The position numbers were made by a program, and so were the translations under genes. Shown here piece after piece: positions 1-57,858 of a stretch of DNA of 64,000 bases; the first letter of the stretch is position 1, and the number at the start of each line of letters is the position of its first letter. The notes beneath the pieces were generated by a model. That model was not told where the DNA came from, did not search any database, and saw only the letters and a program-made list of their open reading frames with translations. This stretch comes from Styela clava (Eukaryota), in assembly GCF_964204865.1 (NCBI RefSeq), contig NC_135259.1, forward strand, positions 13,020,001-13,084,000, given 5' to 3'.

Positions 1-873
1 AACATCTTCTAAAACGAAGTGAGTTTTTTTATCAATACTTGACGAAACGGAAATACAAATATCAAATTTTGAAACGAAAATAAATTCTACAGAATTAAGA
101 CTCGAGAGTATATCTTACTGTGACACAAGCTCCGACATTTCACATTTTTAGGAAGATGTACAACACAATTATACATCAAATAATTTAATGTAAGGATAGG
201 ATTTGTATGATAAACATACTTGGCATAGATGAGGTTGTTGACATGTAGTGGCCAACGAAACTGGCATGCCTGAATGGGATTGTCTCAAATAATAACCAAT
301 CACGGTGCAAATTGAGTTAAGTTTGAAGATAATATCTAAAGTAACAATAGGATCGTTTCACGTAAATTATTATGTAGCTAGTATGCCATAACCGAAAAAT
401 ATTGTAAATAGTAGACATAAGTTTGGCCTTCTACTTCTTCAACAGCCACTCGAAAATAATTACGGACCTCCTGAATTATGCGCACCAAGATGGCGCACAA
501 CCTGAACTTAGATTGTGTATCAGGTAAGGGTTCAGGTTATGCGACATCTTGGTGCGCATATTCAGGAGTAACAGAATTTCATTTCTAAAAAGCTAGGTAC
601 ACGTTCAACTCTGATCGTATTTGAAGTTGTTTGGACTTCCGGTTTGAGGCCTACTAGTAATTCCAACTTAAGTGATTGCAAGTAATATCTTTCTATACAG
701 TCACATCAGCGGAGGCGGTGGGTGGAGACAAGGGAAAAGAAAAAGAAGCTTGGATAAAGAAGAAACTTTCGAGCAAGGTAACTAATAACCTTGGGCAAAA
801 ATTCATAATTTGCTATTTTTCTAATTACTCAATATTTTCTGCAGTTGACGAAGACGCCATTTTGTTTGAATGA
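1..873 (+). CDS. Secreted prepropeptide family member P0 (5' truncated by window edge); exons <1-18, 701-777, 845-873; ...TSSKTN|HISGGGGWRQGKRKRSLDKEETFEQ|VDEDAILFE*
   Basis: GT/AG sites (AA|gtgagt at 18, atacag|t at 700, G|gtaact at 777, ctgcag|t at 844) give an open frame with phases 2 and 1. Clear paralog of PA (HI.GGG.W core; DED..LF[DE] tail). Confidence 0.82.
465..569. mobile_element. About 105-bp hairpin MITE (family A)
   Basis: Long inverted arms ctcctgaa.tatgcgcaccaagatg...catcttggtgcgcatattcaggag; second copy at 6396-6504. Confidence 0.8.
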
Positions 874-1064
874 AGTGTTTAAAGATAGAGGAGACATGTG
901 AAAAATACCAAACATCTAAAAAGCATGTCAAAAACTTCCTTTCTACATATTTGTGTAATAAATGAAATATTGTTGTATGCTTCAGTTTGATATATTAGAC
1001 TTTAATGTGCTGGACCTAAAGGTTAGCAACTAAAGGAAATTCATACCAGAATTATCAGTAGGTT

Positions 1065-1206
1065 ATTGACTTGGACAGTAAATAGAGGAAAAAATTCATA
1101 ACACTAACTTTTGAAATCAAAAGAGACAAATAATTGACTTGGACAGTAAATAGAAGAAAAAATTCATAACACTAACTTTTGAAATCAAAAGAGACAAATA
1201 ACTGAC
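1065..1206. repeat. 68-69 bp direct tandem repeat, 2 copies
   Basis: attgacttggacagtaaatagaRgaaaaaattcataacactaactttt(t)gaaatcaaaagagacaaata at 1065 and 1133. Confidence 0.9.
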
Positions 1207-1478
1207 ACAATAACGAAATGGTTGCAGTGTTATGGTTTCGTTATCAGCCTGCTGGCTTACTTACTGGCTGGCGACGAGCACAAGCATAATTATCCAGTGA
1301 GAAGGATGTAGACTCCAAGTGTCCAAATTTTCCATGTGACACTACAAAGGATAGAAACATTTAGAAATTAAACGTAGGAGATATTTATAAATACGAGCAA
1401 TCAATTGCAAAATTCGAAAACGTGTTGGTTTCGAAAATCCCCAGAAGTGAATGTTGCTTTTGTGTAAGTCAAAAAATA

Positions 1479-1684
1479 GGTACTCCCGTAATGTGTGTAC
1501 CAGGTTAGGGTTAAGTCATATTTTTATTTCTACCTTATTTTAGTTCTATTACGAGTTCGGGGACTGTGTTAGCCAAGTGAATATACCCCCTGCCCATAGG
1601 TTTCCGTCCCTTTACACAACTTTATGTTAAGTAGGCGAACAATATTAGTTACTTCGATGTTGGTACACACACTTCTGGAGCGCC
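1479..1684. mobile_element. About 205-bp MITE related to family A
   Basis: Termini ggtactcc.g.aatgtgtgtacca...tggtacacacacttctggagcgcc; internal ccaggttagggtt shared with 6396-6504; flanked by A runs. Confidence 0.7.
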
Positions 1685-54119: not shown

Positions 54120-56614
54120 ATTTAAAGGGTTAGAAAGTGCACATAGAAGTAAACATATATTACTTAAGTTTGAACCTCAACGTTGAACTCAACGAATATC
54201 TATAAAGTTTATCACAATCGATCTAATGCACCCTTCTCTAAGAAACCCGACAAAGATATCAATTAGAAACCATTGTTACGGATTATCTTATATCAAAACT
54301 TTCTCAATTGACAACGCCTAGAAATTATTTAGATAATTTTTGCCGTAAGAATTATTTGTTTTGGATTTTTCCAGAAAAATGTGGCTTTACCTAATCGGCG
54401 AAATAAAATATAAAAATGAACTCAAGAGTTACATGAAAGGATTTTAACTAAGATAAGGCCAATTACATATTTTGATAACCTAATTGTATAGATCAACCCA
54501 CGCGTGCCCATATACATTGTTACAAATTATATATCATTGTATGGATAAATAAACTTACGGAGAAGCTAAAAACTTGGTTTCTATGTTTTGGTATATATCT
54601 ACATCAAGGGTACAAAGAGCAGATAAATACATCTTGAAACGCTATCTATTAAAGAAGATTTCAAAGATACTATAAACCTGTTAGCATCGATATTATAAAA
54701 GCTAGGTTTAAGTATTATATTTTGATACGCCACTCTTTCTTAACGCAAACCGTGACTATCACCATATTAGGCAGAAGATGTCTGGAACAGATAACGCTGT
54801 CAGTCAAAATAATTTACGTCTCTGTAAACGGAAATTTCGAGAGATCAAGGGTGTAGCTAAGGTTAACAAGAATTCATCATTTTTTTTTTACTTCAAATTT
54901 TCGAAAAGGGAGTTTCTTGTATTTACCAAATATAAGTATTATTTCAATAATTTTCCTCATTAACAAATACATAAAATTTAGATATAATTCAAAATTATTT
55001 GATTTCATACAAGGTTTTCTGAATAAAAGATAGGTACAACTTTTTCTTGATCTAAAATACCAATTTATGTTGAAAAATGCTGTTTTCAAATATGATTACA
55101 GTAAAAAAGAGAAAAATTCTCCAATTAGTCACACATTAAAAATTTCAAGTTATGATCTGGCGACAACATCATAATTTATGATTTGCGAGGAGCGACAAAA
55201 AGAGAATTTTGGTATTTCTTGACAACTTTAATGCATCGAAATACACTTAAAATATTCAATGAGTCAATATTTATCAGACTTTAGGGGACCGAATTAAGGT
55301 TTATGAAAAACCGTTGAAATAGACCCCTTTTGATAAATTGTGTTCAATCAAAATATTTAGCTCAAAAAAATTGATCGCAAACATAGAAATAACTAGTTTC
55401 TTTAAATTCAAGCAATCCAATTAGCTTTGAGAATTTTTTAACGAAATAAATGCTAAAATTGGCAACGCTGTGGTTTGGTATATATGTATTTGTTTATTGG
55501 TACAATGACCATAGTTTTTCGTAAAGAATTTAACTTTTTCAGAAATGTATTTTTCTGCACAATCATGTAAAGTCGAGTGCCGCCATTTGAAAAAATACAG
55601 ACCAATGCAATATCCCCTCGATGCGTATTTATTTGAATGAGAATAACTGGAAATAAATGAATATATTTTTGTTTACTTAATTTATAACGGAAATCTGACG
55701 TCAAATACCCCACCCATCCATACATTTCGCTTTTTGTGGTAAACAAAATTGGCGAAAATTGCAACATGATGCAGTTATATTTTAAGATATAATAGGTTAA
55801 AAATATCACAATGGTTTCGGAGAAATTCATTAAACGAATAAACATTTTTTAACTGGCAGATAGATATTTTAACAGATTTTTTCTAAAATTGATATTATGA
55901 AATAGCAAACTTCAAACTAAGTAACCTATTCATTTTTGAGAATTTTTTGGAGATTGAAAGTGAGGCAAAAAAATAGGTTATTAAACCAAAAAAAGTCTAC
56001 AAATTAAATTTACGTGGTTTGGGAATATCAAAAAAATTACTGATTATCCTGCGTTGCCTTAATCAGTGTTAACTAAATACAATTGTAGGACAGATTCCAA
56101 TATATTTTATTTGCATTTACTCAGAATTATTTATTGGACGTTTACAAGTAACCAAATTATCATATATATGATAAGAATTTCAGCCCAAACTGTCGGTTCT
56201 TGGACGGTTTCGGGAAATTCGATTTTTGCCTATCTACGAAGAGTTTCCATATTTGTATTGTTATTTTTCTGCCAAAGTGACTATAAGTATATATAAACGG
56301 AATGAACGAAATATTGTGATTTCCCATCTTTGTTACGTAATACCGGAACAATATACTAGCGGCAGAGTTATGCAAAAACTTCTTACGCGATGTGTCTGGA
56401 AAATGCGGGACGACGGGTTTGTTATTGGATATAATTATTTTGTCAATCTTTCAACGTATCATCAATAAAAAGGTTTCGTGAAAAATAATAAAAAAAAATA
56501 ATGTTTCAATTTCGTGAAAAAATACGGATATCTTTTTGAAAAATAAATTGAAAGCAATGCACGTGAAAAAGTATTACGCAACGCCTTTTTTCCGTATTCA
56601 TGGGTTCGAAAAGC

Positions 56615-56621
56615 TATAAAT
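56615..56621 (+). promoter_or_regulatory. Putative TATA box of PF
   Basis: TATAAAT followed about 100 bp later by donor CTG|gtatgc (56719/20), with an acceptor ttttacag at 57061 ahead of the ATG. Confidence 0.4.
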
Positions 56622-57106
56622 AGTCTTGGATAGCGAACGATATCTCATATACGAATTTTGCTGAGTATCACAGTATGATCTGTGTTGATCTTTTCGTGGT
56701 CTTTGCAAAATATTGTCTGGTATGCATTTAACTATGTATATAGCTGTATTCGAAATGTGTGGCTGTCGCCTCAGCGTATTTGAACGTCCGATGTTACTTC
56801 AGATTTTTAGTATCACCATTATAGATACTACCAAACCTTTTTATATAAAATTCATCATCAACAATTAAGAGCCACGTTGGCCAAATATCATTTGTTGTTC
56901 ATAAAACAAATAATTTTGAAATTGTTGAATCGTTTGACCATTCTTATAGAATAATATGAAACGATGTGGTTCGTTAACACGTATAATACTAAAATAGTTG
57001 AACCACAATAAAAAGGAAAAAATATTACAGCATTATTTCTCTAAATCTTTTCATTTTACAGTTTATTTAAAATACCAATTTCTGTGTAACAAAAATTGAT
57101 CACAAA

Positions 57107-57858
57107 ATGAATAAGTGCACACAGCTAGCTCTTTTGTTGTTGGTATGCTGCATTCTTACGCTGACAACAACTGTCGAGTGTGCCCAAACACAGGGCGAAA
57201 ATTTGGCAAGAAGGTATATAAACAAATAATCTTATTTCTTAATTGAGTGTAATTTTTCGATGAAGTTGATGTTCAAATCAACAGCATCATTTTACAAAAA
57301 TGAATTGAATAAAACTTCTTCGGATTCATTTTGTCAATAGAAGCATAGAATAAAATGCTGATTACACAAATTTTAAATAGTTAATTCATAAAGATTATTT
57401 ACCTATTTCAATTCGGGTATTTAAGCCACATTTGAAAAATTGAGATGAATTTCTAGTTATGATTATTCATTATATCATTACTGTTTATTGTTTTTATTAT
57501 TATGCACTCTTTTTTTTAATAAAGACATCGTACTAGTGGCACCTGGAGTGGGCTAGTAAAACGTGATCTCCGACGTCAAGAAGAACTGGAAACGCTTGAT
57601 GGTAAATACTTTAAGATTCCATATATAGTTATATAAGTTTCATTGAACAAAGAAATTGGTTCAGCAGAAATATTATATTCAAGATGTGATCGTAAAACCA
57701 ATTAATACAAGTTTTTGTATTGGTCTGCGCGATCTAAATAAATATTTTGTAACATAACAATACGAGTAGACGAATTTACTTTTATCTAATTTTGAAATAA
57801 TCCCTAAAATTCCACAATGAAACTTTTTGTTTCAGATATCGTCGACTTATTTGAATAG
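57107..57858 (+). CDS. Secreted prepropeptide PF; exons 57107-57213, 57525-57601, 57836-57858; MNKCTQLALLLLVCCILTLTTTVEC-AQTQGENLARR|HRTSGTWSGLVKRDLRRQEELETLD|DIVDLFE*
   Basis: Not in the ORF track. Signal peptide; an RR-flanked core followed by KR; DLFE tail; family intron phases. Probable non-coding first exon at about 56645-56719 behind a TATA at 56615. Confidence 0.87.

Follow-up and report, generated by a model that had tools for sequence, protein, structure and literature searches.

A cluster of genes for predicted short secreted prepropeptides in the ascidian Styela clava with the layout of host-defence precursors

Several ascidian peptide systems share a precursor layout in which a signal peptide, a cationic middle part and an acidic tail follow each other. 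In Styela clava this layout is found in the styelins (PF17562), precursors of 80-81 aa encoded by three genes on contig C10 (16,312,433-16,341,875), one of which has a core unlike that of the other two. The clavanins and clavaspirin (PF05452) likewise carry an acidic C-terminal piece and are encoded by three coding exons with introns in phases 2 and 1; two clavanin-family genes lie on contig C1 (10,537,219-10,574,874), with these phases in the one examined. For Ciona, the same order of signal, cationic region and anionic region has been described for Ci-MAM, Ci-PAP and the 'novel LCAMP family', and several LCAMP table entries show Trp and Arg runs near the cationic/anionic boundary (PMC7387483). 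In the novel family the anionic part is short or absent, and one of its members, KH.S921.1, was shown to be antimicrobial (PMC7387483). Botryllin is described as a morula-cell precursor of styelin-like type; its mature peptide has a Trp close to the end, its propiece is acidic, and furin is the proposed protease (PMC9966394). Here we describe eight genes of a similar layout, named P0, PA, PG, PB, PC, PD, PE and PF, in a window of 64,000 nucleotides of the Styela clava genome (C13:13,020,001-13,084,000; C1, C3, C10 and C13 are contigs of this 377 Mb genome).

The eight genes were rebuilt from sequence by six-frame matches to LF[DE] together with splice-aware scans, and each yielded a spliced open frame of 68-100 aa. 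All of them consist of three coding exons separated by GT..AG introns, the first in phase 2 and the second in phase 1, and seven lie on the plus strand, with PG on the minus strand. The predicted precursors comprise a signal peptide, a variable middle part that ends close to a conserved Trp, and an acidic tail, signal peptides having been called by hydropathy and eye and cleavage sites placed by eye. The initial annotation had described this architecture on both strands, and it was reproduced here; the spliced PC protein is letter-for-letter identical to an NCBI model (XP_039262419.1, 'uncharacterized protein LOC120338467 [Styela clava]'). The residue counts given at that time were also recovered: intron 1 splits an Arg codon in 7/8 genes (six as AG/N, one as CG/C, with P0 splitting Asn), the first residue of exon 2 is His in 6/8 (the exceptions being PG with Thr-His and PB with Arg-Ser), exon 2 has a single Trp in all eight, and every exon 3 encodes LF[DE]. 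The Arg at intron 1 merits less weight in our view, as an AG-ending phase-2 donor gives Arg by itself and copies would have inherited it; a rough model with assumed frequencies gave a p of about 0.02. A dibasic or furin site had been reported after the Trp in seven genes, and a basic pair is indeed present in all but PD, but the strict furin site R-x-[KR]-R only in four (PG, PB, PC and PE).

The statement that everything else is nearly unalignable proved too strong. PD and PE align over their whole length (28/83 aligned codons identical) and their flanks show 66-75% DNA identity, a sign of tandem duplication, and P0 and PA also align throughout (33/76 codons identical). Exon-1 stretches past the signal peptide are unalignable apart from PD/PE and, weakly, PB/PE and PB/PF. 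By tail similarity the genes fall into two groups, one with P0, PA and PF and the other with PG, PB, PC, PD and PE.

The eight window genes are one family of duplicated genes. When hidden Markov models were built with each gene left out in turn, the held-out tails scored 6.9-26.1 bits (p 0.0005-0.003, 2000 shuffles), a test that is partly circular since Trp and LF[DE] had guided the choice of the gene models. When exon 2 was joined to exon 3 in all 33,320 possible ways in 262 kb, the top eight independent candidates under a profile trained on the family itself were the window genes (39.9-62.5 bits), followed by one candidate at 16.5 bits and a remainder of at most 9.6 bits, whereas the maximum over 20,492 splices from other loci, 204 kb in all, was 11.6 bits. 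The proposal of one diverged family of secreted prepropeptides, with predicted signal peptides, is supported.

The candidate at 16.5 bits represents a ninth member about 2-3.3 kb left of the window (exons at 6593-6725, 7014-7081 and 7881-7905 of the adjoining stretch L003), in line with the earlier expectation that the family continues in this direction. It has a signal-like exon 1, a Trp followed by KRKR, and an acidic tail with an IFDFE end that scored 10.0 bits on the family profile (p 0.0035). A phase-1 donor ends its exon 1, but exon 2 calls for phase 2, so this gene is either a broken allele here or the result of an assembly error. Exon 2 of the ninth member has no His. Beyond it, scans that need short introns and GT donors found no members in 148 kb to the left, in 49.5 kb to the right, or near the styelin genes.

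Transcript support was sought in six runs presumed to be RNA (none is recorded as RNA), which were aligned as contigs to window positions 3500-23400 and to 7.9 kb over P0, PA and PG. Contig joints matched both introns of PA, PB, PD and PE, that is 8/16 junctions, with spliced contigs of PA and PB in runs of two studies and those of PD and PE in one study. No contig covered P0 in four runs presumed to be RNA, and for PG only unspliced contigs and no spliced joint were present among the rows listed, neither of which is evidence of silence; joints of PC were absent among the contig alignments listed. PA and PG are arranged tail to tail (5611-6900), and PA-spliced contigs run unspliced across exons 3 and 2 of PG, likely as a long 3' untranslated region (UTR) antisense to PG. 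Across these two exons the PA contigs differ from the assembly at about 43/695 bases, and the PG frame and acceptor stay intact under four allele differences tested.

In the following, positions refer to the window and the plus strand, except for PG. The ATG of P0 lies 116 nt left of the window (C13:13019885) and only the 3' end of its exon 1 falls inside (1-18; donor GTGAGT, phase 2, splitting Asn); exon 2 (701-777) encodes the core HISGGGGW, RQG-KRKR as a possible amidation signal and an acidic stretch, and exon 3 (845-873) is acidic and ends in LFE-stop. PA has a 5' UTR intron at 3508-3828 (GT..AG, 319 nt skipped between, joint in one run). Its exon 1 (3862-3998) encodes the signal peptide and a Pro-containing spacer and ends at a GTTAGT donor in phase 2 that splits Arg as CG/C, the intron 1 joint after 3998 being found in runs X1, X3, X12, X4 and X10. 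The core HIRGGGAW, KSKR and an acidic stretch follow in exon 2 (4797-4873) and an LFD-stop end in exon 3 (5611-5639). PF, at the other end of the window, starts with a signal peptide beginning with MNK and a short spacer with a terminal Arg (exon 1, 57107-57213; phase 2, splitting a second Arg), continues with the core HRTSGTW-SGLV, KR and an acidic stretch (exon 2, 57525-57601) and ends in IVDLFE-stop (exon 3, 57836-57858).

In the other five genes, exon 1 ends in phase 2 within an Arg codon. PG, on the minus strand, encodes a signal peptide and a cationic stretch (exon 1, 6850-6992), the core THKIPIIW with KRKRR and a Glu-rich stretch (exon 2, 6143-6210) and an ISELFD motif that was not seen spliced (exon 3, 6005-6033). 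PB combines a signal peptide and a WW-containing cationic stretch (10377-10522; joint in 3/4 runs) with a Ser/Thr/Phe core with terminal Trp, RSKR and a short acidic stretch (10684-10751) and an ALFD motif (11197-11234; joint in 4/4 runs). In PC a signal peptide, an amphipathic helix and a Lys-rich stretch (14674-14876) precede the core HSHDQIKW, RKKR and an acidic stretch (15242-15306) and a VIYLFD motif (15379-15413). Exon 1 of PD (17750-17904; joint in 3/4 runs) encodes a signal peptide and a predicted helix, exon 2 (18587-18654) the core HSVRSNILW followed directly by a Ser/Asp stretch, with no basic pair after the Trp, and exon 3 (19411-19445) a VGDLFD motif, whose joint was found in 2/4 runs with two letters differing from the assembly. 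PE finally has a signal peptide and a Tyr-rich amphipathic cationic helix (21683-21840; joint in 2/4 runs), the core HASHRFGPVIW with RYKR and an acidic stretch (22357-22430) and a VADLFD motif (22864-22895).

That the family had not been recognised among known ones was upheld by database searches, in which the window genes had no Pfam or protein-database relative. Length-limited searches of protein databases, which do not show absence, returned only PC itself for PC exon 1, three candidates with none scoring for an exon-1 alignment of seven genes, and no match for exon 1 of the ninth member. A phmmer search of PC against 1.84 billion representatives gave PC and three repeat-protein matches that we judged to be artefacts. 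Pfam contained no family for PC and 13 exon translations, the sole match among these 14 sequences being a weak, sub-cut-off one to Toxin_22 in the PB signal region (E 0.019), which was rejected. For PC the best ESM Atlas value was 0.77 and PDB gave no match. Our literature search found nothing on the locus and no mention of the gene id (0 matches), most subscription journals being outside its coverage.

Whole-genome pattern searches varied in their yield. The pattern His...Trp-RxKR occurred at chance level (70 matches versus 80 in the control), a P0/PA last-exon pattern found those two genes only, and a pattern for the signal end, which failed to recover its positive controls, is uninformative. 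The last-exon pattern had 18 matches in the genome (control 14). Five were in the window, and among the remaining 13 there was one that forms the end of a gene on contig C3. A recovery of 5/5 exons by such a pattern is circular, since the exons were known when the pattern was written. A wider form of this pattern had 17 matches, six of them known, and 10 of the other 11 were examined and rejected.

Three relatives of antimicrobial type that appear unannotated were found at C3:18,325,242-18,336,582. C3a (18,325,242-18,326,038, plus strand; phases 2 and 1) has an Arg/Phe-rich core. C3b (18,328,560-18,327,841, minus strand; phases 2 and 1) carries three Trp and a Pro/Trp/Arg core in which Trp is followed by six basic residues. 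C3c (18,336,582-18,334,822, minus strand) has a WPW core followed by Gly and a basic run, an amidation signal, and its exon 1 lacks a fitting donor at the 3' end. Neither these exons nor those of the ninth member had a Pfam match, and the ESM Atlas gave no usable match for C3a exon 2. The cores of the C3 genes are strongly cationic (Arg/Phe; Pro/Trp/Arg), the site with Trp and then a basic run is present in two of the three, and all three have an acidic tail like that of the window genes and a last exon that reads [IV]ADLF[EQN]. On a profile built from the eight window genes only, the C3a, C3b and C3c tails scored 11.8, 13.0 and 9.7 bits (p 0.001, 0.0005 and 0.0045), and 15 of the first 17 bases of the C3a last exon are identical to PE exon 3. 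While C3b had been picked by the last-exon pattern, C3a and C3c were reached by other routes and yet have the mini-exon. With the C3 genes and the ninth member included, the His and Trp marks that hold for the window are not family-wide, given the missing exon-2 His of the ninth member and the three Trp of C3b. In total we count at least 12 genes at two loci, 10 of them with intact frames, as a real and apparently undescribed family.

The C3 genes also resemble the known systems. Their signal peptides are like those of the styelins, with scores against the styelin signal of 43 for C3a and 40 for C3c; against that of PF the two score 33 and 38. Judged by eye, C3a and C3c and, in part, C3b and PF agree with the consensus signal of the novel family of Ciona (PMC7387483). 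An acceptor stands immediately 5' of the ATG in the C3 genes as well as in PD and PE, and shortly before it in the styelins, where intron 1 in phase 2 splits Lys before His in 3/3 genes. The C3 genes are the strongest candidates for antimicrobial peptides that we encountered. Each link in the chain from the styelin and Ciona signals through the C3 genes and from there, by mini-exon and intron phases, to the window cluster is short; common origin is therefore likely, not proven. Should the C3 genes bridge the styelins, the Ciona family and the window cluster, several ascidian peptide families would be of single origin.

On balance we regard the window genes as probably a diverged branch of ascidian host-defence prepropeptides. 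Their middle parts comprise 17-49 aa with a net charge of +1 to +6 and their tails have a net charge of -5 to -11, with cleavage sites set by eye. Under the screen of Ohtsuka and Inagaki all eight fall within the length range of 50-100 aa, seven have no Cys past the signal peptide (P0 has one at the assumed cleavage site), C-terminal anionic windows are present in 8/8, and cationic windows lie within the numeric limits of the Ciona screen in 7/8, these limits being loose and PC failing them as does clavanin (PMC7387483). A clear helical moment in a stretch without Pro was seen only in PC, PD and PE (0.44-0.55; styelins 0.47-0.54). The C3 relatives with their cationic Arg/Pro/Trp-rich cores and styelin-like signals tilt the balance toward a host-defence origin, and on that view the cluster is a new branch within an already known precursor type. 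Of the functions that the initial annotation had left open (defence, toxin or signalling), defence is thus favoured, with signalling as the main rival. We consider PC, PD, PE, PG and PB as likeliest to be membrane-active or immune peptides, and P0, PA and PF may be shifted toward signalling.

The window genes are neither styelins nor clavanins. The former were ruled out by the lack of a PF17562 match, gene structure, the Gly-Asp site and tail scores: in styelins this site yields an amidated peptide of 31-32 residues and there is neither a basic run nor an LF[DE] exon, whereas in the window genes, PD excepted, basic residues follow the Trp. Nor did the window genes show the clavanin marks of a PF05452 match, an N-terminal acidic propiece and a His-rich 23-mer (tail p 0.51); in clavanin both introns lie within the signal and N-terminal propiece, and mature peptide and tail share one exon. 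Compared by description, the window genes also have weaker charge and helicity than the linear cationic precursors of Ciona, and by eye seven of them fit neither the Ci-MAM nor the novel-family signal consensus, PF fitting in part (PMC7387483). Botryllin, likewise compared by description, is a 158 aa precursor of a 37-residue peptide with a charge of +11 (PMC9966394). The order of signal, cationic and acidic parts that had been likened to ascidian host-defence precursors was upheld.

A number of results weigh against a host-defence origin. Styelins have four coding exons with phases 2, 0 and 0, and only intron 1 agrees with the three exons and phases 2 and 1 of the window genes. On the family profile, styelin tails scored 0.9-1.5 bits (p 0.10-0.13), which is shuffle level, as is that of styelin and clavanin tails together (p 0.10-0.51). 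The net charge of +1 to +6 compares with +5 to +9 in styelins, and 5/8 middle parts have no styelin-like amphipathic helix, the moments of PA, PG, PB and PF being 0.21-0.30 and the best window of P0 being Pro-rich. In the middle part, amino-acid changes were not in excess either in the PD/PE pair (pN 0.40 versus pS 0.45) or in the P0/PA pair (0.37 versus 0.61), so that positive selection was not seen in these two pairs. The Ciona candidates are stated to have no basic processing motifs at the boundary (PMC7387483). Among the window genes only the PF signal resembles the C3 signals, the other seven scoring 10-28, and shuffled sequences make a poor null model for such peptides. The C3 link rests mainly on the exon of 6-8 codons and the shared phases, with C3b found by that very exon.

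If the window genes do encode host-defence peptides, the precursor would enter the secretory path and the acidic tail would mask the cationic part as long as the precursor is stored in granules. A furin-like enzyme or prohormone convertase would then cut at the basic run after the Trp and drop the tail; furin has been reported in Botryllus morula-cell granules (PMC9966394). After trimming by carboxypeptidase, PG and PC would yield peptides that end in Trp, and P0 an amidated one. PD, without a basic run, would need a cut at the Trp or before an acidic residue; cuts at Trp or before Asp are reported for other ascidian peptides (PMC10888236; PMC7387483). The product might be the whole middle part of 17-49 residues, or a core of 7-13 residues if a second cut occurs at the Arg before the His.

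The latter cut, together with the basic site after the Trp, is also what a signalling function would predict, with convertases freeing His...Trp receptor ligands of 7-14 residues that act as neuropeptides, hormones or cytokine-like haemocyte factors. We hold this to be the less probable explanation, though a serious one. The portion that can be aligned is the short exon-2 core with its flanks and not the exon-1 stretch, and the cores of P0, PA and PF are weakly charged. PF would release an 11-residue peptide preceded by Arg-Arg and followed by Lys-Arg, the PB core is preceded by Arg-Arg, and Gly with a basic run occurs in P0, all of them classical prohormone signals under the established rules for convertases; signalling remains the main rival on account of these sites around short cores. 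The cores of PG and PE may loosely resemble neurotensin-like peptides at their ends, and those of PA and P0 galanin-like peptides at their starts. Ciona is described as having lineage-specific neuropeptides with their own receptors (PMC6475428). CiEMa, a non-antimicrobial signal of Ciona haemocytes, is likewise released from a small secreted precursor with processing at Trp; its active peptide lies downstream of the Trp and is amidated at Gly-Asp, however (PMC10888236), and no sequence likeness to the window genes was seen. The cores share little but His and Trp, which would be unusual for ligands of one receptor family, no Pfam hormone family was matched, and a tandem cluster that diverges fast, encodes a single peptide in each gene and has cationic relatives on C3 suits defence genes better.

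Two further explanations appear improbable to about the same degree. In one, the genes would encode short, chemically modified peptides, the acidic tail and LF[DE] mini-exon serving as a tag for modifying enzymes that brominate or oxidatively decarboxylate the Trp-ended core, as in halocyamine- and plicatamide-type haemocyte compounds. The Trp stands directly before the basic run in PG, PB, PC, PE, P0 and C3b, and the tail motif is kept on two contigs despite wholly changed cores. Ascidian haemocytes make short peptides with dehydrotryptophan or dehydrodopamine by a synthesis described as unexplored (PMC3039461), and styelin D contains bromotryptophan (PMC10608444), but no core matches the compounds named in the available text of these two sources. 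The neighbouring genes encode a sulfotransferase and SLC22 and OATP transporters rather than halogenases or oxidases, and the motif may, by eye, simply represent a single turn of an amphipathic, anionic helix like those of the Ciona propieces. It is a far-reaching and correspondingly doubtful idea that the mini-exon is a portable tag in two unlinked clusters, routing unrelated Trp-ended cores to dedicated processing or modifying machinery; if true, the locus would represent an animal pathway in which short peptides are made on ribosomes and then modified by enzymes, and it could lead to the genes for halocyamine-type compounds or to His...Trp signals as a new chordate class. In the other explanation, the cluster would be a decaying birth-and-death array with only some functional genes, or would encode structural peptides (tunic or adhesive), and the shared motifs would be leftovers of duplication and splice consensus. 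This would fit the frame or donor mismatch between exons 1 and 2 in the ninth member and C3c, the missing RNA cover of P0, whose signal region is four residues shorter than that of PA, and the overlap of PG by PA contigs. However, eight spliced frames are open despite a synonymous divergence of 0.28-0.63, pN is below pS in both tails (0.34 versus 0.63), and four genes are spliced in contigs.

As a diverged branch of host-defence precursors, the family would be of interest in several respects. Styelins and clavanins come from Styela clava, and yet this species has 12 further genes of similar layout that database searches did not name; they provide concrete candidates for salt-tolerant antimicrobial or immune-signal peptides. 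The terminal exon of 6-8 codons and the intron phases link genes whose cores cannot be aligned, and might be used as a search handle in other tunicates.

The sulfotransferase gene (PF00685), by its motifs probably of the heparan sulfate 3-O-sulfotransferase type, lies at 24403-27886 on the minus strand between PE and an array of tandem SLC22-like transporter copies (33885-52800; PDB matches). This array contains a near-perfect duplication of 3,023 bp (33.9-36.9 kb versus 36.9-39.9 kb) that cuts one exon and is possibly an assembly artefact or a very recent duplication. An OATP/SLCO transporter gene (PF03137) is located at 60638-64000 on the plus strand. Gene-like exons on the minus strand at 28900-31400 include two copies of 225 nt (29799-30023 and 30098-30322) with 80% identity and starts 299 nt apart, and the one tested had no Pfam match. 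Several genes of the family contain, in their introns and spacers, a recurring degenerate element about 350 nt long whose ends are inverted-like and which is likely a small transposon, with copies at 4121-4490, 6530-6770, 16430-16715, 18824-19155, 27040-27450, 33194, 42153 and 48915-49303, and small palindromic elements are present at 468-560 and 6395-6506.

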